A stretch of DNA of 63,769 nt, the filler included, from an uncultured bacterium (GTDB taxonomy: Bacteria > DYJV01), in the NCBI GenBank assembly GCA_964543655.1. It is 4 parts of 4 records of this genome, joined end to end, with 100 filler letters (N's around TTAATTAATTAA, not from the genome) between each part and the next. Parts side by side here need not be neighbours in the genome. Positions count along the whole stretch, not along the records: positions 1 to 18,274 come from CAZIZE010000050.1; 3 more parts are not named here. The stretch is one strand, 5' to 3'. Positions 414 through 17,950 of this stretch are shown piece after piece; within the stretch, counting starts at the first letter, position 1, and each line of letters begins with the position of its first letter. The notes beneath the pieces are model-generated. The model searched no databases and was not told the DNA's origin. It saw nothing but the letters and a program-made list of their open reading frames with translations. The position numbers were made by a program, and so were the translations under genes.

Positions 414-430
414 TTTTTCCCTCCTTTAAG

Positions 431-1579: not shown

Positions 1580-2046
1580 ATTCGTTATATAGTCTATAAT
1601 ACACTAAGAGTCAAGAATTTAATCTTGATTTTTTAAATCATATAAAATCTTTACATAAGTTAGCTAATAGAACCAATACTTAATTTTTTATGGAAATTTT
1701 GCCAAATTTTATATTTACCTATTGATAATCTATTTTGACCATATTTTCTGTTAAAATAGTTACCACATTAATTTTACTAATTTCTTCATACTTTTACTGT
1801 AAAATTTCTCTTATCATTCGTAATATTTACACGCAATTTAAAACATAATTAAACTTTTTTAATTTTATTCTTTCCTGCTTTTCAAAAAAGGATTATAGAT
1901 TGACAACCATTAATGAAATTTACAATCTATTGATATTTCTTTGATCTATGATGCAAAATAAAAAATTTGAAAAAATTATTGACTTTACATTTATAATGTT
2001 TATATTGTTATTAATTACAATTACCTACAACTATTTAGGTTAATTT

Positions 2047-4185
2047 ATGAAACAAGAGAGCCTTCATAAAAAGTTTATTCTATACATCTCCACTACTATT
2101 ATTTTCACGATTATTTTGGGCACTATTATCTATTCAATCTTTGACTACCATAATAAAGTAGAAATGTTTAAAGCAAACATCCACAAACAAATTAAAAATA
2201 TTTATCCCTTTTATCAAACTTACCTCTGGCAGGTAGATATTGAAGACTTGATTAAAGTATCAAAATCTCTATTAATAACCAATCAGAATCTTTGTTCTAT
2301 CACAATATTAAACCAGAATAAAAAGGTAATTTTTAAAGAAAGTAAAAAAAATTCCTACTGCCTTAATAGTAGTAAAATCAACATCCAGAAAAAAGTTTTT
2401 TACAAAAATTTATTTATTGGTGAACTATATTTTTCATATTCAGAAAAAAACATCAATACATCAATAAAAAAGGTCCTTATATTAAACTTTGTGTTAGCAA
2501 TTATAATCTCCCTTTTGGTTATATTAATAATAACATATATTCTTAAAATCTTCTTCTCTAAGCATCTAACAGATATAGTCAATCAATTAAAAGTTATAGC
2601 CAAGGGTAATTACAATACTAAATTTGAAAAAAGTAAATATAAAGAAATTAATGAAATAGTCTCTCATCTTAACAACATGCTTCATGAAATTAAGTTGAGA
2701 GAAGAGAAAAACAGGGAATTAACACAAAAATTACACGACCTTATTCAAAACATGCCTGGTGGTATTATTATTACTGACATTAATGGAAAATTAATTGAAA
2801 TCAATAACAGTTTTGCAAATAAATTAAAAGTAGAAAAAGAAAAAGTGCTATTAAACAAAATAGAAGACTTTAGTAGCAATAAATATAACAAAAAAATTTT
2901 TTATGAAAAATTAAAAGAAATAAGTAATAGAGGCTATGCAGAATTTGAATGGGAATTTGTTGACAAAAACGGAAATATTTTCCCTGTTTTAATAAAAGGG
3001 AAAAAATTAAAATTAGGAAATGAAAATCTCATTATTTTAGGAATTACAAATATTGCTTACATTAAGCAACTTGAAAAAGAGCTTCTTACAAAAGAAAAAT
3101 TAGAATCACTTGCAATTCTTGCAGGGGGTATTGCTCACGATTTTAATAATATACTTACATCAATAAGTGGTAATATGGAACTAATAAAAATGTTAATTGA
3201 TAGTGGTAAAATCGAGAATATAAAAAATAGAATAGAAAAAATATTTAAAGCAATAGAAACTGCAAAATCATTGACTCATCAATTATTAACATTTTCCAAA
3301 GGTGGAGCTCCTTTAAAAAAACCTTTTTTTGAATTAAAAGAGCTAATAAAAGACACCACTCTCTTTATACTTACAGGTAGTAGCATTGATGTAGAGTTTG
3401 ACTTTCAGGAAAATTTATACCCTGTTCATATTGATCCTGAGCAGATTAGCCAGGTAATACAAAATATAGTTTTAAATTCAAAACAAGCAATGGGAGATAA
3501 AGGGAAAATATGGATAAAAGCTGTAAATGACAATAATTATGTAAAAATATATATTAAAGATAATGGCCCAGGTATGCCAAAATCTGTTATTGATAAAATC
3601 TGGACTCCTTATTACACTACAAAAAGCAGTGGTAGTGGGTTAGGTTTATCCATTGTTTACTCAATAATAAAAAAACATAATGGCGATATTAAAGTTTATT
3701 CTAAAGAAGGTGAGTTCACAGAATTTGAAATATCACTACCAGCTTACACAGAAACCACATTGCAAGAAAAGGATAAATTAAATAATTCAAAAGAGCAAAT
3801 TGAAAAATTTAAAGATTTAAAAATATTAGTTATGGATGATGATCAGAATATTAGAAATACTTTAAAAGAGTTACTTGAATTTTTAGGTTGCAATGTTACA
3901 ACTGTTAGCAGTGGAGAAGAAGCTCTTAATTACTACAAAGCAGAAAAGTTTGATATTGTTCTACTTGATCTTACTGTAAAAGGAGGAATGGGTGGTAAAG
4001 AATGCATTTCAAATCTTTTAAAGATTGACAAAAATATTAAGGCAATAGTGTATAGCGGCTATTCTGATAGCCATGTTATGGTTAATTATAAAAATTTTGG
4101 TTTTTGTAGTTTTTTGAAAAAACCTTTTACAATATCTTCTTTAAAGGAAGCTATTACTAATTGTTTAAATCAAAAAGGAGCTTAA
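2047..4185 (+). CDS. Membrane-bound hybrid sensor histidine kinase (2 TM, HAMP, PAS, HisKA, HATPase, receiver)
   Basis: H-box GGIAHDFNNIL, DNGPG and GSGLGL boxes, C-terminal receiver (LVMDDD...LLDLT...KKPF). Confidence 0.93.
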   Translation: MKQESLHKKFILYISTTIIFTIILGTIIYSIFDYHNKVEMFKANIHKQIKNIYPFYQTYLWQVDIEDLIKVSKSLLITNQNLCSITILNQNKKVIFKESKKNSYCLNSSKINIQKKVFYKNLFIGELYFSYSEKNINTSIKKVLILNFVLAIIISLLVILIITYILKIFFSKHLTDIVNQLKVIAKGNYNTKFEKSKYKEINEIVSHLNNMLHEIKLREEKNRELTQKLHDLIQNMPGGIIITDINGKLIEINNSFANKLKVEKEKVLLNKIEDFSSNKYNKKIFYEKLKEISNRGYAEFEWEFVDKNGNIFPVLIKGKKLKLGNENLIILGITNIAYIKQLEKELLTKEKLESLAILAGGIAHDFNNILTSISGNMELIKMLIDSGKIENIKNRIEKIFKAIETAKSLTHQLLTFSKGGAPLKKPFFELKELIKDTTLFILTGSSIDVEFDFQENLYPVHIDPEQISQVIQNIVLNSKQAMGDKGKIWIKAVNDNNYVKIYIKDNGPGMPKSVIDKIWTPYYTTKSSGSGLGLSIVYSIIKKHNGDIKVYSKEGEFTEFEISLPAYTETTLQEKDKLNNSKEQIEKFKDLKILVMDDDQNIRNTLKELLEFLGCNVTTVSSGEEALNYYKAEKFDIVLLDLTVKGGMGGKECISNLLKIDKNIKAIVYSGYSDSHVMVNYKNFGFCSFLKKPFTISSLKEAITNCLNQKGA

Positions 4186-4186
4186 A

Positions 4187-5077
4187 TTGGTAAGAATAAT
4201 ATCTTACTCTTTAATTTTTTTCATATTATCCTCATCAATTATCTTTGCTCAATTAGATTCTACTTCAAAAAATATTTTAAATATTAAATTAGTGAAGTTT
4301 AAGCCAAGAGATATTTATAAAATAAAATTAATAAAGCTATTTCTCAACAAAGCTGATGCAAAGTATAGAATTTCACATCTCAATTTTCAAATAACAAAGC
4401 CAAGAGAATTTGAAGAGATAAAAACAGGTAGACTTGTAAATGTAGGCACATTTACTTCAACAAAAAAATATGAAAAAGCATTAATTCCAATAAGGTATCC
4501 TATTTACAGAGGGCTAATTGGCTATAGAATTTTTATTATTAACAAGTCAAAGCAAAATTTATTCAATAAACATACATCAATACAAAAATTGAAAAAATTA
4601 GTTTCTGCTCAAGGATTATCTTGGAGCGATTATGATATTTTAAAATACAATGGATTCAATGTATATCAGGTATGCTACAGGAATATCTTCAGGATGTTAA
4701 ACCTGAATCATGGAATTGATTTTTTTCCACGTGGTGTTTATGAAATTTTTTTTGAAATGGACAGATATGCCAAACAATTCCAAAATCTTATAATAGAAAA
4801 ACATCTTTTAATCCATTATCCACTTGGAATGTACCTCTATGTTTCTCCTAAAACTCCTGAAATTGCAAAAGCATTAAATAGAGGATTAAACCTTTCATTA
4901 CAAGATGGCTCTCTTGCAAAGCTGCTCCAAGGAAAAATAATTGGCGATTATACAATAAAAGAAGTTTTACAAAAAGCAAAGTTAAAAAACAGAAAGATAT
5001 TTAACCTTACAAATCCTTTTTTAACTAAAGAGACAAAGCAGTTATTATCAACTTATTGGATAAATCCTTTAAAATGA
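4187..5077 (+). CDS. Periplasmic solute-binding-fold protein (orphan SBP)
   Basis: Signal peptide; PIYRGLIGYR, QGLSWSD and IDFFPRG motifs of a family usually annotated as amino-acid ABC substrate-binding; no permease nearby. Confidence 0.7.
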   Translation: MVRIISYSLIFFILSSSIIFAQLDSTSKNILNIKLVKFKPRDIYKIKLIKLFLNKADAKYRISHLNFQITKPREFEEIKTGRLVNVGTFTSTKKYEKALIPIRYPIYRGLIGYRIFIINKSKQNLFNKHTSIQKLKKLVSAQGLSWSDYDILKYNGFNVYQVCYRNIFRMLNLNHGIDFFPRGVYEIFFEMDRYAKQFQNLIIEKHLLIHYPLGMYLYVSPKTPEIAKALNRGLNLSLQDGSLAKLLQGKIIGDYTIKEVLQKAKLKNRKIFNLTNPFLTKETKQLLSTYWINPLK

Positions 5078-5079
5078 AT

Positions 5080-6387
5080 TCACTTTTTCTTAAAAAATAA
5101 TTTTATAGGTACTCCTTCAAAATCAAAATTTGCTCTTATCTGATTTTGAATAAATTTTTTATATGACTCTTTTACACCTTCTGGGAAATTACAAAACAGA
5201 ACAAATTTAGGAGGATTACTACTTACCTGTGTCATATACTTTATTTTCACCTGCTTACCTCTAAATGATGGTGGAGCGCTTTTCTTTAATATATAATCAA
5301 GGAATTGATTAAGTATTGATGTCTGTATCCTTTGCCTCTGGTTTTTATAAATTTTTTGTACCAATTTTAAAATTTTATTAACATTGTACCCTGTTAATGC
5401 AGAAATTTTTAAAACAGGAGCATAACTAACATATTTCAACTCCTTCTTTACAAAGTTCATATATTTTTCATGATCCACAGCTTTATTTGCCTTTATTTTA
5501 TCCCATTTATTCAATACTATAACCAGACCTCTACCATAAGAATCAAGCAAATGAGCCAGCGACTTATCCTGATGGGTTATCCCTTCAGATGCATCATGCA
5601 TCAAAAGTACAACATCGCTTCTCTCAATAGTGGAAATTGCTCTAATCACAGAAATTCTCTCTATTTGATAGTTGATTTTACTTTTTTTTCTAATACCTGC
5701 TGTATCAATTATCATAAATTGCTTCCCTTTATAATCAAAAAAAGTATCCACACTATCTCTTGTTGTGCCTGGAATATCAGATACTATTACCCGTTCATAA
5801 CCTAATATTTTATTAACTAAAGAGGATTTCCCAACATTTGGTCTGCCAAGTATTCCAATTTTTATGCAATTTTCATAAGCTCTATAATCAACCAGAGGGA
5901 TTGAGGTATAAATTTTTTTCTGTAATTCATCAAAACCCTTTTTATGAGCAGCTGATATTAAAACAATATCATCATTTCCAAATTCATAGAAGTCAACCAG
6001 GTTCTTTTTCAATTTATCATTATCAACTTTATTTAATGCAATTATAAATTTTTTATTTTTTTTTCTCAATAAATTAATAAGCTCTTTATCCATTGGAGTA
6101 ATTCCAGCTTGAATATCAAATAAAGCAATGATAAAATCAGACTCCTCAATTGCAAAAAGAGCCTGATTTCTAATTTGCAAATCTATTTCCTTTTCTTCAT
6201 CAAAAATGACTCCACCTGTATCAACAAGCATAAATTTTTTATCATTAATTTCTGCAATCTGATAAATTCTATCCCTTGTAACCCCGGGCAAATCATGAAT
6301 AATAGCTTTTCGTTCACCAATTAATGCATTAAAAAGGGTTGATTTTCCAACATTTGGCCTACCAACTATTGATACAATCGGTAACAT
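5080..6387 (-). CDS. der: Ribosome biogenesis GTPase Der
   Basis: Two tandem GRPNVGKS G-domains, DTGG/DTAG, NKVD/NKWD, KH-like C-terminus. Confidence 0.97.
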   Translation of the reverse strand: MLPIVSIVGRPNVGKSTLFNALIGERKAIIHDLPGVTRDRIYQIAEINDKKFMLVDTGGVIFDEEKEIDLQIRNQALFAIEESDFIIALFDIQAGITPMDKELINLLRKKNKKFIIALNKVDNDKLKKNLVDFYEFGNDDIVLISAAHKKGFDELQKKIYTSIPLVDYRAYENCIKIGILGRPNVGKSSLVNKILGYERVIVSDIPGTTRDSVDTFFDYKGKQFMIIDTAGIRKKSKINYQIERISVIRAISTIERSDVVLLMHDASEGITHQDKSLAHLLDSYGRGLVIVLNKWDKIKANKAVDHEKYMNFVKKELKYVSYAPVLKISALTGYNVNKILKLVQKIYKNQRQRIQTSILNQFLDYILKKSAPPSFRGKQVKIKYMTQVSSNPPKFVLFCNFPEGVKESYKKFIQNQIRANFDFEGVPIKLFFKKK

Positions 6388-7181
6388 TAATACTCCATAA
6401 AAATTTTATTTAATTTGAGAACATTATCAAAAGATTTTGTATTTGGTCTTGAAAACGACCTCTCATCTATTTTAATAAATTTTGCTTTTAAATCTTTAAG
6501 ATATTCTCTTTTTTGTGGTGGCACAGGATTTTTATTCATTGGTCCAACCTGATACAAATATATCTCAGGTTTTGCAGCTAAAACCTTTTCATACGAATAC
6601 CTAACATGTTTTTTATTAACATTAACTATGTTAATTCCACCTGCTTTTTCTATAATATCATTAATAATATCCCTTTTTCCTGCAACAATATATGGAATTT
6701 GCATAATTTCAAAAACTACTTTTGGTTTTCTCTTTAGCTTTTTAACCCTTTTCAATTCTGCTTTTAATTTTACAATCAACTCATCTGCTCTTTTTTCTTT
6801 GTTAAACATTTTTCCCATCTGTTGAATTGCACTTAATATTTGAGAAAGAGTATAAGGATTGTACTTATAAATCTTTGCTTTAATATGATTTTGTAAATTT
6901 TTGTTAAAAAATCTCACAGAAGAAATAATTATCAAATCAGGCTTTAATGATGAAATAATTTCAATATTGGGCCTTATGTGTGAGCCTACCTTTTTAGCAT
7001 TTTTAAAACCTCTCATATGTTTTGTTACTCCTACAACTCTATCTGCAACATCAAGTTTTTTGAGAATATCACCAGCAGCAGGAGCCAGTACTACTATTCT
7101 ATTGTATGCATAAGCATTAAGATTAATAATCAGGAATAAAGTAACTACCAATCCTGTTAAAACGAACTTCATAGGTTTCAT
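6387..7181 (-). CDS. Cobalamin/iron-siderophore ABC transporter substrate-binding protein (BtuF-like)
   Basis: RIVVLAP, PNIEIISSLKPDLII; start moved to ATG 7181 after a GAGGAGG RBS; last gene of a FecCD-type operon. Confidence 0.82.
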   Translation of the reverse strand: MKPMKFVLTGLVVTLFLIINLNAYAYNRIVVLAPAAGDILKKLDVADRVVGVTKHMRGFKNAKKVGSHIRPNIEIISSLKPDLIIISSVRFFNKNLQNHIKAKIYKYNPYTLSQILSAIQQMGKMFNKEKRADELIVKLKAELKRVKKLKRKPKVVFEIMQIPYIVAGKRDIINDIIEKAGGINIVNVNKKHVRYSYEKVLAAKPEIYLYQVGPMNKNPVPPQKREYLKDLKAKFIKIDERSFSRPNTKSFDNVLKLNKIFMEY

Positions 7182-7863
7182 AAAGCACCTCCTCATTGAT
7201 TTTATCACGGCATAAATCAAAAATAATTTTACCATTTTTCATAAATATAAATCTTTGAAAAAATTGTAATGCAAGATTTATATCATGAATAGAAGCTATA
7301 ACTGTTGAGTTAAGCTTACTAATGTAATCTAAAATAAAAAGTGAAAATTTTATATCAACCATACTTGTTGGCTCATCAAGCAAAACAACTTCAGTTTCCT
7401 GATTTAATGTTCTTGCTACCATAACTTTTCTTTTTTCACCACCTGATAAAGTAAAAAACTCTCTGTTTCGATACTTTTCAAGATTAAATTTTTTTAAAAG
7501 TAAATCGGTTTTCCTGTAATCCTCTTCTGAAAATTTTTCACCTTTTAAATAGGGAAATCTTCCAAAAAGTATAGTTTCATAAATTGTATAATTAAATGAG
7601 ATTGTTGCAAATTGTGATAAATATGAAAGTTTTTTAGCTCTCTCCTTTTCATTAAAAAATTTAAGATTTTTATTAAAAAATAGAATATCGCCAATATATT
7701 CAATGTAATATGCTGACAAAATATTTAGTAAAGTTGATTTTCCACAACCATTTTCTCCTAAAATTGCAATTTTATCATTTTTAAATATTTTAAAATTTTC
7801 TATGAATAATTGAAACTTACCATATGAAAATTTTAAATTTTTTATTGTATAAACACTATTCAT
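7123..7863 (-). CDS. Cobalamin/iron ABC transporter ATP-binding protein
   Basis: GENGCGKST, LSGGE, LLDEPT, HDINLA. Confidence 0.9.
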   Translation of the reverse strand: MNSVYTIKNLKFSYGKFQLFIENFKIFKNDKIAILGENGCGKSTLLNILSAYYIEYIGDILFFNKNLKFFNEKERAKKLSYLSQFATISFNYTIYETILFGRFPYLKGEKFSEEDYRKTDLLLKKFNLEKYRNREFFTLSGGEKRKVMVARTLNQETEVVLLDEPTSMVDIKFSLFILDYISKLNSTVIASIHDINLALQFFQRFIFMKNGKIIFDLCRDKINEEVLYETYEVRFNRIGSYFIPDY

Positions 7864-8803
7864 TCCAGATTTTATCCCTTTTTTTCAAAAGAATATAGAT
7901 AAAAAAACCACCTCCTACTATAGAAGTTATTATTCCCACAGGAAGCTCTGCACCTGAGGGAATTATACTTCTACTCACTGTATCTGAAATTAATGTTAAA
8001 TCAGCTCCAAATATTGTTGAGTATAAAATAACTCTCTTCATATTACTACCAAAAAAACCTCTTACAATATGGGGAACAATTAATCCAACAAATGCAATTA
8101 TTCCAGAAAAGCTTACAGAAATAGCAGTTAAAAATGCAGCACCAATAAATGAAATCTGCTTAAAAAATCTTTGATTTATCCCCATATTTGAAGCTGTTAT
8201 ATCATCAAAAGATAGAACATTTAATTTTAATCCATTAATATAAAAAAATATGAAAAATGATATTGTGCTAAAAAAAACTATTAAAATTTTTAAAGTATCA
8301 AATTGATAAAATCCTCCCATAAGCCAGAATACAATTGTACCAACAGATTCATCAAAATAATATTTTAAAAAGCTTATGATACTACTTGTAATTATATTTA
8401 ACACTATTCCTGCAAGAATCAGAGTAACAGAGTTTAAACCTGTCCCTCTTTTAGAAATTTTATACACAATAATAAGTCCCAACATACCAGATAAAAAAGC
8501 TGCAACTGGTATTGTAAACACAGGCAGCCCCAGGCTAATTGCAACAACAGCACCAAGAGCTGAGCTTGAAGCTACACCAGTTGTAAAACCATCTGCAAGT
8601 GGATTTTTAAGCACAAGTTGAAACAAAGCTCCACTAAGCCCAAGAGCTCCACCTATAATAAATGCCATGATTATTCTGGGCACCCTGAGGTGTAGAATAA
8701 TATTATAATTATCTGAGTTAAATTTTACAGCACCAAAATATATTCCAGCAGCAATAACAAATATGTTAAAAACTACTATTCCCAATATTGAATATTTTTT
8801 CAT
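7856..8803 (-). CDS. FecCD/BtuC family ABC permease
   Basis: LRVPRI, LKNPLAD, GIIAFVGLIVPH, ELPVGIIT. Confidence 0.92.
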   Translation of the reverse strand: MKKYSILGIVVFNIFVIAAGIYFGAVKFNSDNYNIILHLRVPRIIMAFIIGGALGLSGALFQLVLKNPLADGFTTGVASSSALGAVVAISLGLPVFTIPVAAFLSGMLGLIIVYKISKRGTGLNSVTLILAGIVLNIITSSIISFLKYYFDESVGTIVFWLMGGFYQFDTLKILIVFFSTISFFIFFYINGLKLNVLSFDDITASNMGINQRFFKQISFIGAAFLTAISVSFSGIIAFVGLIVPHIVRGFFGSNMKRVILYSTIFGADLTLISDTVSRSIIPSGAELPVGIITSIVGGGFFIYILLKKRDKIWNE

Positions 8804-8862
8804 TAGGAAAGTTTAATAATTAAAAGGTTTCTCTTTGTCAATGTTTTTAATATACATTAACA

Positions 8863-8919
8863 GTTATTAAACTATCTTTCAACGTTGAACCATGAACTTT
8901 AAACCGTAAAATTGTATTA
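8863..8919 (-). repeat. Partial copy of dispersed intergenic module B (MITE-like)
   Basis: Reverse complement reads TAATACAATTTTACGG...GTTCAACGTTGAAAGATAGTTTAATAAC, matching 33612-33697 and 60653-60740. Confidence 0.8.
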
Positions 8920-9038
8920 TGGATTCAATAAAATTACTCAATTTTTTTAAAAATCATTCCAAAAGCACTTTTTGAATAATTAAAAAAATTTTAACTTTTT
9001 CCTTGAGAAGCAAAAAAAATTGTTTTAATAATGAAAAT

Positions 9039-9818
9039 ATGGAAAATAAATATGCTTGTGATTTTTCAGATTTTGCAAAATTTGTGCTATTAAAATATCT
9101 ATTTAATGATAAAAACATAGGAATAGTATGGTATTTAACCCCTGATAAAAATGAGCCAGATTACTATCATAAATATAAAGTTTATTTCAAAAATTCACAA
9201 ATTTTTGAATATGCTCTTAATATAGATAAAAGCATTGCCATGCAATTTAACCTTCAATGTAAAAAGGAGCCTGATAAATTTTACATTGGCAAGCTTGAAT
9301 CCATGCAAATTTTAGATAGTGTTACATTTTTCAATAATTGCATTGTAGGTGCTTATGCAGATGGAAAAGATTATAGGAAAATTTGGCTTAGTAAAGCTCT
9401 TGACAAAATTAAAGATTGCGAGGTAATCTATCTTGACCCCGATTATGGAGTACCAATTGATTATAGAATTTCTGTTTTAAAACCATTAAATAAACTTTCA
9501 AACCCAGAAAAATATGCATCTATTGAAGAAATTAAAGAATTTTTTCTTGGAAAAGATGTTTTAATATTGCATAACAGATACCCGGTTGGTGTGGAACATA
9601 ATAAAATTCATTCTCACTTATTTATTAGAATGAGAAAAGAGTTTCCAAAGAGATTTTTCTATATTATAAAATTAAATCCTTTTATGCCACGATTCTTTTT
9701 AATTATTTCAAGATATAATCTTATAAAAAGATTAAAAAATTTTTTAATTCAAAATAATATTTGTAAAATCGAGCCATTTAAAGGACTTTTTACTTTAATT
9801 TTACCAGAAAATTTTTAA
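9039..9818 (+). CDS. Conserved hypothetical protein, possible methyltransferase-like fold
   Basis: KYACDFSDFAK, VWYLTPD and IYLDPDYG motifs; probable start ATG 9039. Confidence 0.6.
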   Translation: MENKYACDFSDFAKFVLLKYLFNDKNIGIVWYLTPDKNEPDYYHKYKVYFKNSQIFEYALNIDKSIAMQFNLQCKKEPDKFYIGKLESMQILDSVTFFNNCIVGAYADGKDYRKIWLSKALDKIKDCEVIYLDPDYGVPIDYRISVLKPLNKLSNPEKYASIEEIKEFFLGKDVLILHNRYPVGVEHNKIHSHLFIRMRKEFPKRFFYIIKLNPFMPRFFLIISRYNLIKRLKNFLIQNNICKIEPFKGLFTLILPENF

Positions 9819-9828
9819 TAAAAAAAGC

Positions 9829-9857
9829 TTGACTTTACTAAAAATAGGTGATAGTAA
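9829..9857 (+). promoter_or_regulatory. Sigma70-type promoter of the leader peptide
   Basis: TTGACT, 17 nt spacer ending TG-n, then TAGTAA. Confidence 0.5.
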
Positions 9858-9890
9858 TGAATGTATACAAGTTTAAGGAGAGATTTTAAT

Positions 9891-9944
9891 ATGATTTCAA
9901 GAAGTAATTTTTACTTTTATTTTTATTTTAAGCGCCCACGGTAG
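9891..9944 (+). CDS. Phe/Tyr-rich attenuator leader peptide MISRSNFYFYFYFKRPR
   Basis: AAGGAG RBS, 17 codons with seven consecutive alternating Phe/Tyr codons, stop codon next to the first GC-rich stem segment. Confidence 0.88.
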   Translation: MISRSNFYFYFYFKRPR

Positions 9945-10034
9945 GATAATATTGTATTATCCGGCCGTGGGCTTTTATATATTGCTCACGGCCTTTTTTT
10001 TGGCCGTGAGTTTAAAGCTCACGGCTTTTTTTTT
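9934..10034 (+). promoter_or_regulatory. Transcription attenuator with five alternately pairing segments and two terminator hairpins
   Basis: GCCCACGG(9934) / GGCCGTGGGC(9963) / GCTCACGGCC(9984)+T8 / GGCCGTGAGT(10002) / GCTCACGGC(10017)+T9. Confidence 0.85.
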
Positions 10035-10065
10035 ACAAAATTAAAACAGAATTAAGGAGGAAAAA

Positions 10066-10293
10066 ATGATTATTTTATTAAACAACAAGGCAAAAAAAGA
10101 GCAGATTGATTTAATTCTTGAAACATTGGATAAACAAAATTTATCAGCTTTCCACATTCCAAATGAAAATGCTATAGCAATAATTGAAAACAATCTTTCA
10201 GTAGAGGTATCACCTGAATTAATAAAAACTCTTCCAGGAATTGACAGGGTATTAGTTGACTACAATATGAATAGTGGAAAAATAGTAAATTAA
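10066..10293 (+). CDS. Stand-alone ferredoxin-like regulatory domain of type I-beta DAHP synthase (no catalytic barrel)
   Basis: MIILL..KAKKEQI...PELIKTLPGIDRV resembles the N-terminal regulatory domain of Thermotoga-type AroF; AAGGAGG RBS; lies behind a Phe/Tyr attenuator. Confidence 0.7.
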   Translation: MIILLNNKAKKEQIDLILETLDKQNLSAFHIPNENAIAIIENNLSVEVSPELIKTLPGIDRVLVDYNMNSGKIVN

Positions 10294-10318
10294 TTTTTTT
10301 TAATTTGGCATTTTCTCT

Positions 10319-10352
10319 TTGACTTTTTAACTAAATCAAACTATGATTTAGT
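10319..10352 (+). promoter_or_regulatory. Sigma70 promoter overlapped by a palindromic operator
   Basis: TTGACT-17-TATGAT; perfect inverted repeat ACTAAATCA-N5-TGATTTAGT at 10330-10352. Confidence 0.65.
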
Positions 10353-10376
10353 ATCACTAAAAAAGGAGAGAGAAAA

Positions 10377-10970
10377 ATGCCAAAAAAAGTAAAACATTTA
10401 CTGAAAGAACTTGGAATCGGCAGTAAAATTCGTGAAATTAGACAAGAAAAAAATATAACCATACAAGAACTTAGTGAAAAAACTGGCCTTTCCAAGGGAC
10501 TAATCTCTCAGGTTGAAAATGAACAGGTTTCTCCCCCAATATCTACTTTATTAAAAATAGCCTCTGCTTTAAAAACAGATCTGGCACATTTTTTTCAAGA
10601 AAAAGAAGAAAATCCTAAGGTTACAGTTGTTAGAAAAAGTGAAAGAATAGTTTCTGGAAGAAGAGGAGTTAAAGGAATTGACTTAGGCTATTCTTATGAA
10701 TCACTTGCACATAAAAAGATTAACAAACACATGGATCCATTCATAGTAACTTTTGAAGTGAAGGAAAAAGAAGATATTGTTATGTTCAGTCATGAAGGGG
10801 AAGAGTTTGTATATGTGTTAAAAGGAGAGTTAGAATTTGTTACTGATGAAGGTGATGATATTATATTAAATGAAGGTGATTCTCTTTACTTTGAAGCAGA
10901 CGTTCATCATGGTTATCGTTCTATAAAAGAGCCTTCTCTTGCATTAATTGTAGTTTATAATAAAATTTAA
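10377..10970 (+). CDS. XRE-family transcriptional regulator with C-terminal cupin domain
   Basis: HTH_XRE N-terminus (IQELSEKTGLSKGLISQVEN), cupin motifs HEGEEFVYVLKG and GDSLYF...HH. Confidence 0.92.
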   Translation: MPKKVKHLLKELGIGSKIREIRQEKNITIQELSEKTGLSKGLISQVENEQVSPPISTLLKIASALKTDLAHFFQEKEENPKVTVVRKSERIVSGRRGVKGIDLGYSYESLAHKKINKHMDPFIVTFEVKEKEDIVMFSHEGEEFVYVLKGELEFVTDEGDDIILNEGDSLYFEADVHHGYRSIKEPSLALIVVYNKI

Positions 10971-10980
10971 GGATATAACA

Positions 10981-11544
10981 ATGATAGAAATTCGTTTTCA
11001 TGGTAGAGGTGGTCAGGGAGCTGTAATTGCTTCAAAAATGCTTGCTTATGCTTTTTTTCTTGATGGCAAATTTGCCCAATCTTTCCCAACTTTTGGTGCA
11101 GAGAGGAGAGGCGCACCTGTAGCAGCATTTGTGAGGGTTGACGATAAATATATTGAAAACAGAAGCCCAATTCAATCCCCTGATTATGTTATAGTAATGG
11201 CTGGCAAACTTGCAGAAACAATAGATGTTTCCTTAGGTATAAAAAAAGATGGAATTATTATAATTAATTGTGATAAATCACCAGATTTTTACCATTTTGA
11301 AGAAAAAGTTAAAATTCTTACATTTGATGTTAACAAATTGGCATTGGAATACAAATTGGGAACCAAAACAATGCCAATTATCAATGCGCCTATTTTAGGT
11401 ATTTTTGCAGGTATAACAGAGCTTGTTTCAATTTCATCTTTAAAAAAAGCTGTTGAGAAATTTATCCCTGTAAAAATAGAATCCAATCAAAAAGCGCTTT
11501 TAGATGCTTATAATTTAGTAAGGAGTCAAAATGGAAACAGTTGA
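10981..11544 (+). CDS. 2-oxoacid:acceptor oxidoreductase gamma subunit (PorC/PadE-like)
   Basis: [23 protein letters not shown]. Confidence 0.93.
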
Positions 11545-13156
11545 ATATGAAGGAGTTGTATCATCATTTGATATTTCAAAATTGCCCTTATCTATCACCA
11601 CAACAGAGGTAAATTTAACAGGTTCATGGAAATTTTTTAAGCCTGTTGTAAAAGAAAAATTATCACCATGTTCTTTAGCCTGTCCTTCTAATATCAATAT
11701 AGCAAGATACATTATGCATATAGTTAAGGGTGATTTGAAACATGCAGCTGAAATACTTAGAAATGAGAATCCTTTTCCTGCCACATGTGGAAGAGTTTGT
11801 CCACATTTTTGTCAATATGAATGCAACAGAGCCAATTTTGATGAAGAAGTTTCAATTAGAGATATAGAAAAGTTTCTTGGTGATTATGCTCTTGAAATAC
11901 CATTGGAAAAAACTTCTCTTGAACTAAAAAAGAGTGTTGCAATTATAGGCTCTGGACCAGCTGGACTTGCTGCTGCATATTTTTTAAAAAGATTTGGAGT
12001 TAATGTTACAATTTTTGAAAGAGAGAATGAGTTAGGTGGACTTTTGAGATATGGAATTCCAGACTATAGACTACCTAAAAATATAGTAAAAAGAGAGATA
12101 GATAACATTATAGCATTGGGTATAGATGTAAAAACCAATACAGAGGTAACTCCAAAGTTATTAACTTCTCTTTATGAAAATTTTGATGCTGTTATTGTAG
12201 CTACTGGCCTTTGGAAAGGAAAAGTTCCAGAAAATATTGAAATAGATAATAAATATTTTTTTAAAGGAATAGATTTTTTGAAAAAAATCAATAAAGAGCA
12301 CAATATATTTACAAATGAAAAAATTGCAATTATTGGTGGTGGCAATGTTGCCATTGATATAGCAAGGACATTGCTGAGATATGGGAACACCCCTATTATA
12401 ATTTATAGAAGAACAATTGATGAAATGCCAGCTTTTAAAGAAGAAATTAATGATGCTATTGAAGAAGGTATTAAAATAAGAGAGAAACTGATTTTAAAAG
12501 ATTATAAATTGGATAATGAGGCGATTGTAGGATATTTTGGAAAAGTTGAAAAAATCATAGATAATAGAGTTGAAACATCAGAAGTTTTTGAAGAAGAGTT
12601 TAATAAGGTAATTTTTGCCATTGGTCAGGATAAAGAGTATAATTTTCCAGAAAATGGCAATATTTTTTATATAGGAGATATTTTACTTGGCCCATCTACT
12701 GTAACAGAATCTATTGCTTCTGCAAAAAAAACAGCTTTTAAAATATTAAATTTTTTTGGAGCTACTGATAATTTACCAGATGAAAATTTTTTCAGAAGTT
12801 TCAAAGATTATTCTTCAAAAGATGTTGTTGATTTTGAGAAAATCAATACATTCTATTTTCAAAAAACACCAAAATTACAAAAAGAGAAAATACCAATAAA
12901 CAGAAGAATATCAACCTTTGAAGAAGTATATCTCCCAATTACTCTTGAAGATATTGTTAATGAAGCAAAGAGATGTTTTAATTGCGGTATTTGCAACAAA
13001 TGTGGTACATGCTGGTTTTTCTGTCCTGATGTTTCTGTTGTATATGAAAAAGATTCCAATGAGTCAGTAGATTTTGATTATCAACATTGTAAGGGTTGCG
13101 GTGTTTGCTCTTCAGAATGCCCTCGTGGAGTTATAGAAATGGAAGAAGATAAATAA
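11531..13156 (+). CDS. GltD-like FAD/NAD(P) oxidoreductase fused to a PorD-like 2x[4Fe-4S] delta subunit
   Basis: N-terminal TGSWKFFKPV, CGRVCPHFC, GSGPAGL, GGGNVAID, C-terminal CNKCGTCWFFCP and CKGCGVCSSECP. Confidence 0.85.
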   Translation: METVEYEGVVSSFDISKLPLSITTTEVNLTGSWKFFKPVVKEKLSPCSLACPSNINIARYIMHIVKGDLKHAAEILRNENPFPATCGRVCPHFCQYECNRANFDEEVSIRDIEKFLGDYALEIPLEKTSLELKKSVAIIGSGPAGLAAAYFLKRFGVNVTIFERENELGGLLRYGIPDYRLPKNIVKREIDNIIALGIDVKTNTEVTPKLLTSLYENFDAVIVATGLWKGKVPENIEIDNKYFFKGIDFLKKINKEHNIFTNEKIAIIGGGNVAIDIARTLLRYGNTPIIIYRRTIDEMPAFKEEINDAIEEGIKIREKLILKDYKLDNEAIVGYFGKVEKIIDNRVETSEVFEEEFNKVIFAIGQDKEYNFPENGNIFYIGDILLGPSTVTESIASAKKTAFKILNFFGATDNLPDENFFRSFKDYSSKDVVDFEKINTFYFQKTPKLQKEKIPINRRISTFEEVYLPITLEDIVNEAKRCFNCGICNKCGTCWFFCPDVSVVYEKDSNESVDFDYQHCKGCGVCSSECPRGVIEMEEDK

Positions 13157-13170
13157 TTAAAGGAGTAACC

Positions 13171-14313
13171 ATGAAAAAGGAAATGCTTCTTGGAAGCGAA
13201 GCTATTGCTGAGGGAGTTAGATTATCAAAGCCAGGTGTTATAGCTGCTTATCCAATTACTCCCCAGACACATATAATAGAAACATTGTCAGAAATGGTTG
13301 ACAATGGAATTTTAAATGCAAAATTTATTAAAGTTGAATCTGAAATTTCAGCAGCAGCATCAGTACTTGGATCAGCAACTGCTGGAGTTCGCTCTTTTAC
13401 TGCCACATCCTCTCATGGATTGGCATTAATGCATGAAATGCTACACTGGATAGCTGGCTCTCGTATTCCTCTTGTTATGGTAAATGCAAATAGAGCTATT
13501 GGTGGCCCATGGAACATCTGGACGGATCAAACAGACAGTATGTCTCAACGTGATTTAGGCTGGCTACAAATATATTGCACATCATCTCAAGAAGCACTTG
13601 ACACAATAATTCAAGCTTTTTACATTACAGAGAAAATTTTATTACCTGTAATGGTTATGATTGATGGTTTTATACTGTCTCATACAATGGAGCCTGTTGA
13701 AATCCCGGAAGAGAATATTGTTGATGAATTCTTACCTGAATATGAACCAGAGATCTGCCTTGATCCAGATAAACCATTTACTTTCAATGCAGCTGCCAAA
13801 GGTGATACATTTTATCTTTTAAAAAAAGATATGCAGGATACCATAATGAATTCCTTTGACATTATTCAGAACACATTCAGTAGATTTGAGGAATTTTTTG
13901 GAAGAAAATATAATTTTCTATCAACTTATAAAATAGAAGATGCAGACACTGTTTTTATTGTTGCAGGAGCCCTTGCTGGCACAGTTAAAGTAGCAATAGA
14001 TTCTTTGAGAAATGAAGGTTTAAAAATAGGTGTTGTTATTCTAAGACTGTTCAGGCCTTTTCCAGTAAATACCATAAGAGAGCTACTTAAAGATTTTCAA
14101 AACATAATTGTTTTAAATAAATCATTAAGTTATGGTGCTTCAGGTACAATTACTCAAGAAATAAAAGCAGCACTTTTTGGAACCAATACAAATTGCAATA
14201 TATATGATGTAATAGTAAGCCTTGGTGGCAAAGAAATTTTTCCAGAAACAATTGCAAATATTGCAAAATCGTACAAAAACTATCCTTTGGATAAAACCAT
14301 TTGGTTGAACTAA
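13171..14313 (+). CDS. 2-oxoacid:ferredoxin oxidoreductase alpha subunit (PorA-like)
   Basis: AYPITPQT, VESE, TATSSHGL, RLFRPFP. Confidence 0.93.
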   Translation: MKKEMLLGSEAIAEGVRLSKPGVIAAYPITPQTHIIETLSEMVDNGILNAKFIKVESEISAAASVLGSATAGVRSFTATSSHGLALMHEMLHWIAGSRIPLVMVNANRAIGGPWNIWTDQTDSMSQRDLGWLQIYCTSSQEALDTIIQAFYITEKILLPVMVMIDGFILSHTMEPVEIPEENIVDEFLPEYEPEICLDPDKPFTFNAAAKGDTFYLLKKDMQDTIMNSFDIIQNTFSRFEEFFGRKYNFLSTYKIEDADTVFIVAGALAGTVKVAIDSLRNEGLKIGVVILRLFRPFPVNTIRELLKDFQNIIVLNKSLSYGASGTITQEIKAALFGTNTNCNIYDVIVSLGGKEIFPETIANIAKSYKNYPLDKTIWLN

Positions 14314-14332
14314 CACAGATTAGGAGTCAATA

Positions 14333-15205
14333 ATGGATTTTTCAAAAATAACAAACATAGAATATATGAGTCAGGGACATTTAGGTTGCCCCGGGTGTGG
14401 TGCAACTCTTTCAATGAGACATGCTTTAAAAGTTTTAGGAGAGAATACTGTTGTTATTATTCCAGCATGCTGTTGGTCAATAATTGCCGGCGGACTACCA
14501 ATGACAGCTCTACAGGTTCCTTTAATGCACGTGCCATTTGCTGTTGCAGCTGCATGTGCAAGTGGTGTTAGTGAAGCATACAAATATAAAGGTAGAGATG
14601 ATATAACTGTTATGGCATGGGCTGGAGATGGTGGAACATTTGACATAGGGTTACAGGCTCTATCTGGTGCTGCTGAGAGAAAGGATGACTTTATCTATGT
14701 TTGCTATGATAATGAAGCATACATGAACACAGGTATTCAAAAAAGCTCTGCAACTCCTCCTGGAGCTTGGACTACAACTACACCTGCTGGTAAAGAGATT
14801 GATTTTGAAAAAAAAGATATTTTTCAAATAGTATCAGCTCATAATCCTGCTTATGTGGCAACTGCTTCAATAGCTTTTCCTGATGATTTTTATAGAAAAT
14901 TTGAAAAAGCTAAAAATATAAAGGGATTTAGATTTATTCACCTCTTTTCTACCTGCTCTCCAGGGTGGAAAATAGATTCATCAGACTCTTTAAAAGTTAT
15001 GAGAAAAGCTGTTGAATCAGGATTTTTTATTTTAATGGAAAAAGAAGGGGAAGATGAGATTAAAATAACATATAAGCCTGAAAAGTTCATTCCTATTACT
15101 GAATATTTTAAAATTCAGGGAAGGTACAGAAATCTAACAGAAGATAAAATTGAATTAATTCAAGAAAGAATAAATAAAAGGCTTGCAAAATTTGGGCTTA
15201 TCTAA
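14333..15205 (+). CDS. 2-oxoacid:ferredoxin oxidoreductase beta subunit (PorB-like, TPP-binding)
   Basis: GCPGCG, GDGGTFDIG, YDNEAYMNTGIQ. Confidence 0.93.
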   Translation: MDFSKITNIEYMSQGHLGCPGCGATLSMRHALKVLGENTVVIIPACCWSIIAGGLPMTALQVPLMHVPFAVAAACASGVSEAYKYKGRDDITVMAWAGDGGTFDIGLQALSGAAERKDDFIYVCYDNEAYMNTGIQKSSATPPGAWTTTTPAGKEIDFEKKDIFQIVSAHNPAYVATASIAFPDDFYRKFEKAKNIKGFRFIHLFSTCSPGWKIDSSDSLKVMRKAVESGFFILMEKEGEDEIKITYKPEKFIPITEYFKIQGRYRNLTEDKIELIQERINKRLAKFGLI

Positions 15206-15217
15206 TAATAGATATGT

Positions 15218-16015
15218 ATGACTGACTTTAAATCCAAGGTTAAAAATGTTGTAAAGAATAATTTTAAAATAAGCAAAGAAAAATATTTTGAATTTGAAAA
15301 AAAATACAACTTTTTTCATAATCTCTCCGTAGCACTTGGAAATTTTCTCAATATCCAACCTAATTCAACAGTTCTTGATATTGGCTGTGGATATGGAATT
15401 TCAACAAATGCAATTAAAAAAGAGTTTAATGTATCAGAAGTAATTGGAATTGATCTTTCAGATGAAATGATCAATTTTGGCAAAGCTATCTACCCATCTT
15501 TAAATTTAATGACCTGTGACGGAGAAGAGATTGAAAACATTTTTAAAAATAGGCAATTTAATTATATTGTTTACAATGCTTCTATTTTCATATTCCCTGA
15601 CACATTAACAGCTTTTAAAAGTGCTTTTAATCTCATAAAAAAAAATGGTTACATAGGCTTTTCACACTATCCAGAAATTATAGATACTTTTACAGGCAAA
15701 GATCTATTTAGCCACGCATTTGAAATTAGCGGTTTTCCATTACCTAAAAAAAGAGTTATTTCTGATTTAACAACATGCATTAATAATCTTTCTAAAGCTA
15801 ATTTTAAAAATATAATTACCACAGAATATACATTGAGGCTTAATACAGAATTTCTTATAGATTTTTTTTCAATACCAGCTCAATCTGCTTCACTTTTTCC
15901 AAAAAATAGTTACAAAGAAAGAGTTCCCTTAATTAAAAAATTATTTCAAAATTTAAAACAATTTGAATCAAAAGGAAAAATTTCTTGGAAAATTGTTAAA
16001 GCAGAAAAATTATAA
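15218..16015 (+). CDS. Class I SAM-dependent methyltransferase
   Basis: VLDIGCGYG, GIDLSDEMI. Confidence 0.85.
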   Translation: MTDFKSKVKNVVKNNFKISKEKYFEFEKKYNFFHNLSVALGNFLNIQPNSTVLDIGCGYGISTNAIKKEFNVSEVIGIDLSDEMINFGKAIYPSLNLMTCDGEEIENIFKNRQFNYIVYNASIFIFPDTLTAFKSAFNLIKKNGYIGFSHYPEIIDTFTGKDLFSHAFEISGFPLPKKRVISDLTTCINNLSKANFKNIITTEYTLRLNTEFLIDFFSIPAQSASLFPKNSYKERVPLIKKLFQNLKQFESKGKISWKIVKAEKL

Positions 16016-16024
16016 ATTAAAGAG

Positions 16025-17830: not shown

Positions 17831-17879
17831 TTAAACCTTATACTCATTGACCAGACTCTAAACTCCATACTTGTCAATC

Positions 17880-17896
17880 TTGGCACATTTCTTGTT
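17880..17896 (+). promoter_or_regulatory. Possible sigma54 (-24/-12) promoter of flagellin
   Basis: TTGGCAC-N5-TTGTT (GT instead of the canonical GC at -12). Confidence 0.45.
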
Positions 17897-17950
17897 TTTA
17901 ACTCCTTATAAGAAAATTTTTCTTAATATATAAAACAAGGAGGTTTTAAA

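Follow-up and report, generated by a model that had tools for sequence, protein, structure and literature searches.

The window analysed here is a stretch of 63,769 nucleotides, filler included, from an uncultured bacterium (GTDB lineage Bacteria; DYJV01; assembly GCA_964543655.1) whose genome has a size of 2.26 Mb and a G+C content of 29.7%. Between 9829 and 10293 it carries a putative promoter, a short leader ORF, a series of segments that can pair with each other in alternative ways, and a gene for a small protein related to the ferredoxin-like domain (FXD) of DAHP synthase. The features are the following.

9829..9858, + strand: putative promoter, -35 element TTGACT at 9829-9834 and weak -10 element TAGTAAT at about 9852-9858
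9875..9882, + strand: Shine-Dalgarno (SD) sequence of the leader ORF, AAGGAGAG, 8 nt 5' of the ATG
9891..9944, + strand: leader ORF, 17 sense codons plus TAG (start ATG 9891-9893, stop TAG 9942-9944), peptide MISRSNFYFYFYFKRPR
9909..9929, + strand: sensor codons TTT TAC TTT TAT TTT TAT TTT (F Y F Y F Y F)
9934..9941, + strand: segment 1, GCCCACGG, 5' arm of the antiterminator, within the last three leader codons
9944..9962, + strand: inner hairpin in the 1:2 loop, GGATAATA / TATTATCC, loop TTG
9963..9972, + strand: segment 2, GGCCGTGGGC, partner of segment 1 (ON), or of segment 3 or 5 (OFF)
9984..10001, + strand: segment 3, GCTCACGGCC (9984-9993), and U8 (9994-10001); with segment 2, terminator T1
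10002..10010, + strand: segment 4, GGCCGTGAG, partner of segment 3 (ON, antiterminator of T2) or of segment 5 (OFF)
10017..10034, + strand: segment 5, GCTCACGGC (10017-10025), and U9 (10026-10034); with segment 4, terminator T2
10054..10293, + strand: regulated FXD gene, SD AAGGAGG at 10054-10060 and 75-codon ORF at 10066-10293

The initial annotation had described a 17-codon ORF with seven alternating Phe/Tyr codons, which is confirmed to the base, and five GC-rich segments able to pair 1:2, 2:3, 3:4 and 4:5, with U-tracts of 8 and 9 nt behind 2:3 and 4:5. We find the same four helices, with lengths of 8, 10 (including one G-U pair), 9 and 8 bp, and both U-tracts. The inner hairpin was absent from that description. 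It consists of 8 bp (9944-9951 with 9955-9962) and stabilises 1:2 by about 12 kcal/mol (-25.4 vs -13.7 kcal/mol); relatives also have a hairpin in the 1:2 loop, with a different sequence. U8 doubles as the loop of the 3:4 hairpin. Behind the leader ORF and ahead of the structural gene stand two intrinsic terminators, 2:3 with U8 and 4:5 with U9. A simple terminator scan calls T2 (10002-10026, 11 pairs, loop of 3, followed by a T-run) and misses T1, because the T1 loop of 11 nt exceeds the limit of 8 set by the tool. The motif CACGGC(C)TTTTTT occurs five times in the 2.26 Mb, four of them within leader attenuators. Finally, an Rfam search of 9000-11000 returned 24 rows at E ≤10, none of which, T-box included, reaches its gathering score.

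The leader ends in the codons AAG CGC CCA CGG TAG, and according to a codon usage count CGC and CGG are very rare in the source genome (0.17 and 0.39 per 1000 codons). The Phe/Tyr run by itself is unremarkable there: aromatic runs of at least six codons occur 118 times across the six frames of this AT-rich genome. The weight lies in the combination of features and in its conservation. Since a consensus scan called no promoter-like site in 9780-10080, the promoter is only an inferred one; a TTGAC[AT] after an A-run is found at the equivalent position in all seven related FXD loci. Of four listed sequencing runs, two contain this stretch and both are recorded as DNA; no RNA run with it is listed.

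The protein of 75 amino acids encoded downstream is probably a divergent, stand-alone DAHP-synthase FXD protein, although the assignment is borderline by sequence. It matches Pfam PF18152 (DAHP_snth_FXD) with 24.1 bits, compared to a cut-off of 27, at an E value of 3.3e-5 and over 63 of the 67 profile positions, and a precomputed PF18152 match exists for eight of 22 members of the FXD family. A profile of this family retrieved just 11 proteins among 1.84 billion representatives, none of them a DAHP synthase, and a PDB sequence search with the same profile gave no match at E ≤1. The AlphaFold2 model (pLDDT 76) has the element order E-H-E-E-H-E, which is the beta-alpha-beta-beta-alpha-beta of a ferredoxin-like fold. 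In Foldseek, the best eight rows are all Thermotoga maritima DAH7PS or a chimera with its N-domain (TMq 0.65-0.73, E 0.017-0.062), and a structure search of the Atlas gave TM values of 0.72-0.76 to FXD parts. Phe or Tyr is the ligand of the FL domain of T. maritima DAH7PS, by which the enzyme is gated (PMC5526877), and because of this relationship the FXD gene would fit as the target of a Phe/Tyr attenuator. Unlike the FL/FXD domain of that enzyme (PDB 1rzm, 1vr6; PF18152), the same fold stands alone here. We found no DAHP synthase gene in the source genome, whose sole PF00793 gene is KDO8P synthase; it has ADH synthase and DHQ synthase II in place of DAHP synthase.

The FXD gene was found in six of the 41 genomes searched, which are the six species genomes of the phylum in this set (G000 to G005). 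The next gene is a convergent one in G002, G004 and G005, whereas XRE-cupin/OFOR genes follow in G000, G001 and G003. We considered the latter as the real target of the attenuator and rejected them, as they have a promoter-like site of their own and lie on other contigs, unlinked to the FXD gene, in the other three genomes. Judged from this gene order, the target is the FXD gene itself.

With a probability of roughly 70%, we interpret the element as a transcription attenuator of the ribosome-mediated leader-peptide type, with charged tRNA-Phe and tRNA-Tyr as its signals and the stand-alone FXD gene as its target. As computed, it combines four features of this class: an SD with an ORF, a cluster of sensor codons, terminators and a predicted ribosome-dependent antiterminator. 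We infer that the switch would operate as follows. With Phe and Tyr in good supply, translation would proceed to the end of the leader, where the ribosome would dwell on the rare CGC and CGG codons and the TAG stop. There it would mask segment 1, leaving segment 2 free for segment 3, and T1 would form before U8 (OFF). Polymerase escaping T1 would meet a second terminator before U9, made up either of 4:5 or of 2:5 stacked on 3:4. If either charged tRNA runs short, stalling would occur on the first five of the seven Phe/Tyr codons and segment 1 would be exposed. The 1:2 helix with its inner hairpin would form first and lock segment 2, segment 3 would pair with segment 4, and segment 5 would remain without a partner. 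With neither terminator formed, the FXD gene would be transcribed (ON). One ribosomal decision would in this way be relayed through mutually exclusive helices to two serial terminators, which should give a multiplicative gain in OFF-state tightness at no cost to the ON state.

Folding is consistent with this scheme. The 176-nt region folds at -61.5 kcal/mol, compared to -31.5 ± 3.9 kcal/mol in 200 shuffles (z -7.8; none of the 200 as good). Footprint-constrained folding, which had been proposed as a check, reproduces the logic put forward in the initial annotation: when the bases under a ribosome at termination (9924-9954) are blocked, 2:3 folds ahead of U8 and a terminator stem ahead of U9, whereas without a ribosome, or with one stalled with its A site at 9909-9921, 1:2 and 3:4 form and segment 5 is unpaired. 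The outcome is unchanged at 55 and 70 °C. The initial interpretation is supported, in silico and by comparison, in every part open to such examination; two of its claims have to be refined. That a ribosome at the stop codon produces two terminators in series holds as far as stems before U8 and U9 are concerned, but the second may at equilibrium be 2:5 around 3:4, the fold obtained after read-through of T1, which ends at U9 and replaces 2:3 plus 4:5. Moreover, stalling on Phe or Tyr gives 1:2 plus 3:4 for the A-site positions above, but not on the last two aromatic codons, where stalls fold as at the stop codon.

The ON and OFF folds are near-isoenergetic, ON being lower in four of the five five-segment units and about equal in G003, and the estimated barriers between them, 9.8-13.4 kcal/mol, suit a kinetic switch. 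If segment 1 is left unmasked, the minimum-energy fold of the full-length RNA contains 1:2 plus 3:4 in two of these five units (G000 and G002), while G001 and the metagenome locus L022 favour 2:5 around 3:4 and G003 favours 2:3 plus 4:5. Since the ON fold is the equilibrium fold in only two of five units, the model requires that 1:2 is kinetically trapped. A further prediction of the folding model is that the attenuator is ON when the leader is untranslated, in contrast to trp and his; this is unusual, and expression would hinge on efficient translation of the leader. In five-segment units a U-rich stretch (U6 in G003) lies 3' of 1:2, which could pause or even terminate polymerase.

F/Y leaders with the same switch, for which the initial annotation had proposed a search, recur in relatives; we count eight such units, in the six species genomes and in one metagenome variant. 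All six genomes have an SD and an ATG, a leader rich in Phe/Tyr, a CGG-TAG end on segment 1 and then the same switch. Each of the eight FXD leaders has 3-5 codons for Phe and 3-4 for Tyr and lacks Trp codons, and all of them keep the mixed Phe/Tyr run, with synonymous TAT/TAC differences. The five-segment, two-terminator form is found in G000, G001, G002, G003 and L022. In G005 a single terminator precedes the FXD gene, and in G004 two complete leader-attenuator units stand in tandem before it, so that two terminators precede the gene in five of six genomes by means of two different architectures. In a set of 16 units, 100% of the cells of 2:3 and 98.2% of those of 1:2 are paired, compared to 30-61% in slid controls, and in the five five-segment units pairing of 3:4 and of 4:5 likewise reaches 100%. 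The stems are almost invariant and covariation cannot be distinguished from shuffles, 113-278 of 500 of which match the observed scores. Comparative support, as judged from these alignments, takes the form of conserved pairing potential and not of compensatory change. In the six genomes of the phylum, a covariance model, R1, has full-length matches of 45-79 bits at 18 attenuator sites, and its top score among 95 other genomes is 37 bits. One R1 match of 34 bits, G003:C201, was dismissed as an ordinary terminator 3' of a membrane pyrophosphatase-like gene.

The two-terminator arrangement could also be read in a simpler way, as a classical single-terminator attenuator (1:2 vs 2:3) to which an unregulated or leaky T2 was added, which lowers expression in both states; we regard this as rather unlikely. 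Segments 4 and 5 with U9 are indeed a recognisable copy of segments 2 and 3 with their U-tract: R1 matches 10003-10034 as a copy of this module (partial match, 32.3 bits, model positions 39-72). Because the terminator module would have been duplicated, the 3:4 complementarity would follow automatically, as a by-product. The single terminator of G005, moreover, indicates that one can suffice. Against this, 3:4 is a perfect helix of 9-11 bp in all five five-segment units, from three genera, and its whole loop is the U-tract of T1. It is also more stable than 4:5 (-17.8 vs -13.0 kcal/mol in G000) and is made first. Finally, a constitutive T2 right in front of the sole regulated gene would defeat the attenuator.

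The module is not confined to the FXD gene. It is also found 5' of the ADH-synthase/DHQ-synthase-II/tyrA/pheA/trp supraoperon, where all five leaders contain Phe and Tyr and four of the five also Trp, and the leaders of trpE, trpD or a small orphan gene have runs of 3-4 Trp. Leader codon content follows the target pathway (F/Y, F/Y/W or W). In all cases the element lies immediately 5' of a same-strand gene that has its own SD. Across the 20 attenuator units, the leader terminates with CGG-stop at the 3' end of segment 1 in 18, and the peptide is conserved solely in the aromatic run and in the C-terminal residues that segment 1 forces. One leader exists in two variants, set apart by an insertion of 12 nt that preserves the frame. 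A crude scan of the source genome for leaders of other amino acids (SD, short ORF, enriched residue and T-run) gave 30 candidates, none of them convincing, and it missed the known Trp leader.

These observations bear on whether the ribosome is the sensor at all. Conservation of the CACGG/CCGTG cores goes far beyond the needs of pairing alone, and aromatic codon runs arise readily in this genome, so one could envisage a real switch in which a protein or small RNA (as with TRAP or PyrR) binds the repeats, or a ligand or tRNA acts, and the ORF is incidental. We consider this highly unlikely. An incidental ORF does not account for the SD and ATG, for a stop placed right behind segment 1 in 18 of 20 units, for leader residues that shift with the target pathway, or for an indel of 12 nt that keeps the frame. 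No Rfam family, T-box included, is reached at gathering score, and a segment that has to fit two or three partners can be expected to keep its sequence fixed. There is an even slimmer chance that the main product is a short terminated RNA (about 150-180 nt, ending at U8/U9), which the strong structure, the terminator end and weak Rfam rows of sRNA families (best SdsR_RyeB, 27.6 bits vs a cut-off of 38) would suit, or the hydrophobic 17-residue micropeptide, with FXD read-through being secondary: the limited conservation of the peptide, the invariable position directly 5' of a same-strand gene with its own SD, and the use of the module for different genes with matching codon content all argue against it.

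The element is real, the mechanism class to which it probably belongs is a textbook one, and both a Phe-Tyr-Phe leader (aroR) and chained hairpins (his) have been published. In Escherichia coli pheL-pheA and pheM-pheST a translated leader with regulatory codons is combined with competing hairpins, between which ribosome position decides (PMC3082878). Our element likewise has a short leader, a run of regulatory codons and antiterminator and terminator hairpins. It differs from pheL and pheM in its mixed Phe and Tyr codons, its two terminators instead of one, the lack of an upstream protector segment and the predicted read-through as the untranslated default. While it works like a Phe leader, it lies outside the Rfam family Phe_leader (RF01859, gathering score 55 bits), which has no row over 9891-10034 and whose sole row covers 10292-10405 (18.3 bits, E = 7).

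In the his attenuator of Salmonella and E. coli, segments A to F form the chain A:B, C:D, E:F vs B:C, D:E (PMC4046918). There too, a chain of mutually exclusive helices carries the decision of the ribosome along the leader. However, only E:F terminates in his and the untranslated default is termination, whereas here the inner link 2:3 has a U-tract as well, the chain consists of an odd number of segments and ON is the predicted default. A related sensor is aroR-aroF of Corynebacterium glutamicum, a Phe-Tyr-Phe leader with ribosome stalling that is induced by Phe limitation, Tyr being without effect (Neshat et al., 2014, as reviewed in PMC11802643). Both systems have a mixed Phe/Tyr leader peptide, and aroR regulates a gene of the aromatic pathway. 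By that review, aroR has three aromatic codons, compared to seven to nine here, and its target is a DAHP synthase, whereas ours is a stand-alone relative of the regulatory domain of that enzyme.

The locus represents a compact natural case in which one ribosomal decision, shared segments and two terminators would make a simple multiplier of OFF-state tightness. Regulatory elements in series are known from tandem riboswitches and T-boxes. Tandem terminators occur in the rimP leader (PMC2965389). As in these systems, two serial termination decisions would tighten control. As far as the accessible descriptions go, however, those systems are not leader-peptide attenuators or use two independent sensors, while here one sensor serves two terminators through shared segments; G004 instead has two full sensors in series. 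A literature search, outside whose scope most subscription journals lay, returned no leader-peptide attenuator with two terminators, and the available parts of PMC2965389 and PMC4615214 describe none. That a sister genus duplicates the whole attenuator for the same end argues that low leak was selected.

Given the textbook mechanism class and the published Phe-Tyr-Phe leader, the surprise for a specialist is moderate. With this finding, leader-peptide attenuation extends into a phylum-level lineage that is uncultured and represented by metagenome bins only, and in which one conserved RNA module serves at least three kinds of targets, each with sensor codons of its own. The finding also points to an uncharacterised small protein, a free relative of the DAHP synthase domain that binds Phe/Tyr, encoded in a genome in which the enzyme itself was not found. 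As its control is predicted to be tight and amino-acid-specific, the FXD protein is likely to be a regulator.

A more specific proposal, which we put forward only tentatively and think doubtful, is that the stand-alone FXD protein is a trans-acting Phe/Tyr sensor and that the attenuator provides the input to a second, protein-level layer of control. The protein would then be made only when charged tRNA-Phe or tRNA-Tyr drops, a logic that resembles that of anti-TRAP in Bacillus subtilis. Its binding partner would be some enzyme or regulator of the aromatic pathway; the lineage would have swapped DAHP synthase for the ADH-synthase route, with the regulatory domain of the lost enzyme surviving as a free protein. 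The need for a strictly OFF regulator would explain why two terminators are present in five of six genomes. The role of Trp-specific counterpart would fall to an orphan protein of 65 amino acids whose gene follows a Trp-codon attenuator in the same genome, and together the two proteins would control how chorismate is shared out to the Phe/Tyr branch and the Trp branch of the single supraoperon. The FXD protein and the 65-aa protein have no detectable homology (hhalign probability 0.2%). A stand-alone FXD gene is also present in the unrelated genome G038, without an aromatic leader, and in the 401 genomes searched the FXD domain nearly always forms the N-terminus of a protein of about 340 amino acids.

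The Phe/Tyr leader-peptide attenuator at 9891..10034 is genuine and conserved, with switching predicted from folds, and its target is the gene behind it, which encodes a stand-alone DAHP-synthase ferredoxin-like domain (FXD). The initial annotation had reported a 17-codon ORF with seven alternating Phe/Tyr codons, five GC-rich segments (s1 to s5) that can pair 1:2, 2:3, 3:4 and 4:5, and U-tracts of 8 and 9 nt after 2:3 and 4:5. Reading of the sequence confirms all of these to the base, with helices of 8-10 bp.

Features of the FXD leader and its target gene (all on the plus strand)
9875-9882, plus: Shine-Dalgarno sequence of the leader ORF, AAGGAGAG, from sequence reading
9891-9944, plus: leader ORF, ATG at 9891, 17 sense codons, TAG at 9942-9944, from sequence reading; translation gives the leader peptide MISRSNFYFYFYFKRPR
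9909-9929, plus: alternating Phe/Tyr run, leader codons 7-13
9934-9941, plus: s1, GCCCACGG, then the stop codon TAG
9963-9972, plus: s2, GGCCGTGGGC
9984-9993, plus: s3, GCTCACGGCC, then T8 at 9994-10001
10002-10010, plus: s4, GGCCGTGAG
10017-10025, plus: s5, GCTCACGGC, then T9 at 10026-10034
10054-10060, plus: strong Shine-Dalgarno sequence of the FXD gene
10066-10293, plus: FXD ORF, 75 codons

The five segments are all G+C-rich in a genome of 29.7% G+C overall, and they form helices of 8 bp (1:2, whose loop contains an inner 8-bp hairpin), 10 bp including one G-U (2:3), 9 bp (3:4) and 8 bp (4:5). The fold energy of the leader region is -61.5 kcal/mol, compared to -31.5 +/- 3.9 for shuffled sequences, none of which (0/200) folds as well. 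An Rfam search of the region returned no family at its own threshold. Aromatic runs of at least six codons are common in this genome (118), which counts against the run alone. A consensus scan called no promoter in 9780-10080; a putative promoter element, TTGAC[AT] after an A-run, is kept in seven of seven related FXD loci.

The FXD gene is present in six of 41 genomes searched, all of them uncultured metagenome bins according to their record titles, and these are exactly the phylum-level search set: this genome (G000) and five others (G001-G005). When relatives are searched for the Phe/Tyr leader, as the initial annotation had proposed, the ORF and switch precede the FXD gene in all six. The leaders of G001 (MLKTNNLYFYFYFYFQRPR), G002 (MTISNIFYFYFYFIYPR), G003 (MTLKTSVKFYFYFYFFRISLR) and a metagenome locus, L022 (MTLNNTVNKFYFYFYFFRMSLR), are followed by five segments. 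G004 carries two complete units in tandem (MKSTAIVATYFYFFSYYIERPR and MKINNFNFFYFYYFYGDNPR; L006, G004:C367); in L024, which also has tandem Phe/Tyr units, the second leader differs by an in-frame 12-nt insertion. Thus, two terminators precede the FXD gene in five of six genomes, via two architectures. The leader of G005 (MKGCITTVDRFFNFYFYFYSIICPR; L005, G005:C197, minus strand) has three segments and one terminator, and the 5' part of its ORF contains a 10-nt complement of s1 (and s3). By analogy to segment 1 of trp, this complement may be a protector that restores termination as the untranslated default. Stem pairing is conserved to 98-100%, compared to 30-61% in slid controls. Covariation is not above that of shuffles in stems that hardly vary; as an argument rather than a test, such invariance is expected of segments with two or three pairing partners.

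We analyzed the switch by folding transcripts with ribosome footprints. The initial annotation envisaged two serial terminators, 2:3 and 4:5, when the ribosome reaches the stop codon. With a terminating ribosome on 9924-9954, the transcript to U8 indeed folds as 2:3 (terminator T1), but the predicted fold of the transcript to U9 has 3:4 enclosed by 2:5, a long stem that ends at the U-tract, rather than 2:3 plus 4:5. Stalling on Phe or Tyr had been proposed to allow 1:2 plus 3:4. This holds for an A site at 9909-9921, where, as without a ribosome, 1:2 and 3:4 fold and s5 is single-stranded, but not for stalls at 9924 or 9927, which give the same folds as the stop codon. The pattern is unchanged at 37, 55 and 70 C.

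In G000 (this genome), the read-through (ON) and terminating (OFF) states have energies at s3 of -26.8 vs -26.4 kcal/mol, separated by an estimated barrier of about 12 kcal/mol. After read-through of T1 the change from 2:3 to 3:4 is uphill (-27.5 to -24.9 kcal/mol), which leaves s4 available to s5. Once s5 is made, ON is at -45.7 and OFF at -40.5 kcal/mol. ON lies below OFF (2:3 + 4:5) in four of the five five-segment units, the two being equal within 1 kcal/mol in that of G003, and the barriers range from 9.8 to 13.4 kcal/mol. The equilibrium fold of the free full-length leader is 1:2 + 3:4 in only two of these five units; the 2:5/3:4 composite is preferred in G001 and L022, and both terminators in G003. 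Therefore, kinetic trapping of 1:2 is required, as it is in other attenuators. Since the leader has no protector segment, its untranslated default would be read-through. A U-rich stretch after 1:2 in the five-segment units could be a pause that synchronises polymerase with ribosome. CGC and CGG, both among the last four leader sense codons, are rare in G000: a count over 992 long ORFs, 173 of which stop at TAG, gives 0.17 (CGC) and 0.39 (CGG) per 1000 codons. Slow decoding and release at CGC, CGG and TAG would keep the ribosome on s1 during synthesis of s3. Among the only 30 tRNA genes that ARAGORN finds in the whole genome, Tyr and Ile are missing and Arg is represented by anticodons CCT, TCG and TCT alone; the bin is incomplete for tRNAs.

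The mechanism class is textbook, as in the pheL and pheM leaders (PMC3082878), and chained alternative helices are described for the his attenuator (PMC4046918). In his, according to the same paper, the untranslated default is termination, whereas here it is predicted to be read-through. In Corynebacterium glutamicum, aroF stands under a Phe-Tyr-Phe leader with a reported response to Phe, not Tyr (PMC11802643). According to a 2010 survey, Proteobacteria and Actinobacteria were the groups with leader peptides on record until then, to which the survey added Firmicutes (PMC2965389). In the literature covered, which is incomplete, we found no published leader-peptide attenuator with two terminators on one leader. 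Mechanism class, helix chains and a Phe-Tyr-Phe leader are thus already known, and the element is new as a variant.

The module recurs at other genes of the lineage. CACGGC(C)TTTTTT occurs five times in G000, four of them within attenuators, and CACGGCTTTTTT 22 times in G001-G005 (19 within leader attenuators), compared to five for the reversed control. This module stands 5' of the ADH-synthase operon in five genomes, with Phe/Tyr-rich leaders of which four also contain Trp; trpE (G003, G004) and trpD (G005), with leaders containing runs of 3-4 Trp; and small orphan genes in G000, G001, G003 and G004, whose leaders also have Trp runs. The last sense codon of the leader is CGG in 18 of 20 units, with the stop codon immediately behind it where s1 ends on its 3' side. 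R1, a covariance model built from 16 core units, reaches 45-79 bits at 18 attenuator sites of the six genomes; its maximum in 95 other genomes is 37 bits. R1 also matches 10003-10034 partially (32.3 bits) as a copy of the s2-s3-U module, which suggests that the second terminator arose by duplication. The G003 trpE leader (MMIDIINNQNIQNWWWSYDMI; L026, G003:C93, minus strand), with two separate serial terminator hairpins, each with a U-tract, adds another instance of doubled terminators within this lineage.

Two further units of G000 lie outside the window. On contig C72, at about 3975-4195 (L012:177-395), an attenuator whose leader, MNKIFYNTNFYFWFYFKKNMREVRPR, combines Phe, Tyr and Trp codons is directly 3' of two tRNA genes and 5' of an operon encoding ADH synthase (342 bits, cut-off 299) and DHQ synthase II (406.5 bits, cut-off 392), followed by tyrA-like, pheA-like (chorismate mutase/prephenate dehydratase) and trpE/G/D/C-like genes. 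No DAHP synthase gene was found in G000, and its single PF00793 gene, which adjoins pyrG, is a KDO8P synthase (383 bits, cut-off 314). The bacterium appears to use the archaeal-type entry into the shikimate pathway. On C85, at about 36764-36900 (L013, minus strand), a leader with Trp codons, MMKRNYWWWQIKSCVVNQR, is joined to the same terminator module ahead of a gene for a 65-aa orphan protein and hisF; the orphan protein has no similarity to the FXD protein in direct comparison.

The attenuator has the FXD gene itself as its target, because the next gene is convergent in G002, G004 and G005, and because the XRE-cupin and 2-oxoacid oxidoreductase genes, which follow it in G000, G001 and G003 only, have their own promoter-like site and are unlinked, on other contigs, in the remaining three. 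The product scores 24.1 bits against Pfam DAHP_snth_FXD, just below the cut-off of 27. Its AlphaFold2 model (21 relatives, pLDDT 76) has the order beta-alpha-beta-beta-alpha-beta, and each of its eight best PDB matches is either Thermotoga maritima DAH7PS or a chimera that carries the N-domain of this enzyme (TMq 0.65-0.73; E from 0.017 to 0.062, always above 0.001). An Atlas structure search agrees (TM 0.72-0.76 to FXD parts). In T. maritima, the ligand of this N-domain is Phe or Tyr, and the domain gates the enzyme (PMC5526877). The family is narrow: among 5.8 billion clusters it has 22 members, 70-75 aa long apart from one that is called at 109 aa, and its profile matches 11 proteins among 1.84 billion representatives. 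The most interesting loose end is this target, a predicted amino-acid-binding domain that exists as a free copy under tight gating. An unrelated genome of 51% G+C (L104, G038:C29) has a stand-alone FXD gene for 69 aa immediately 3' of a chorismate mutase-like gene, with no aromatic leader present; this locus hints at a link between free FXD proteins and the aromatic pathway in other lineages as well.

Downstream, the XRE-cupin regulator gene (10377-10970) is preceded by its promoter-like site (TTGACT, 17 nt, TATGAT; 10319-10351), overlapped by a perfect 8-bp inverted repeat (CTAAATCA ... TGATTTAG, 10331-10351) that is likely an operator for autoregulation. Contig C50 (window 1-18274) ends in a flagellin-like ORF (17951-18322) that runs into the N filler, the window being made up of more than one contig. 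In the 2-oxoacid oxidoreductase cluster (10981-17830), the delta subunit forms a fusion with a GltD-like NAD(P)-binding flavoprotein (541 aa). A methyltransferase gene and an IorA-like gene (598.5 bits, cut-off 650.9) follow, with no IorB seen up to the contig end. The subunits match PadE/F/G/I of NADH-dependent phenylglyoxylate dehydrogenase below threshold, and the cluster may encode an aromatic 2-oxoacid enzyme.
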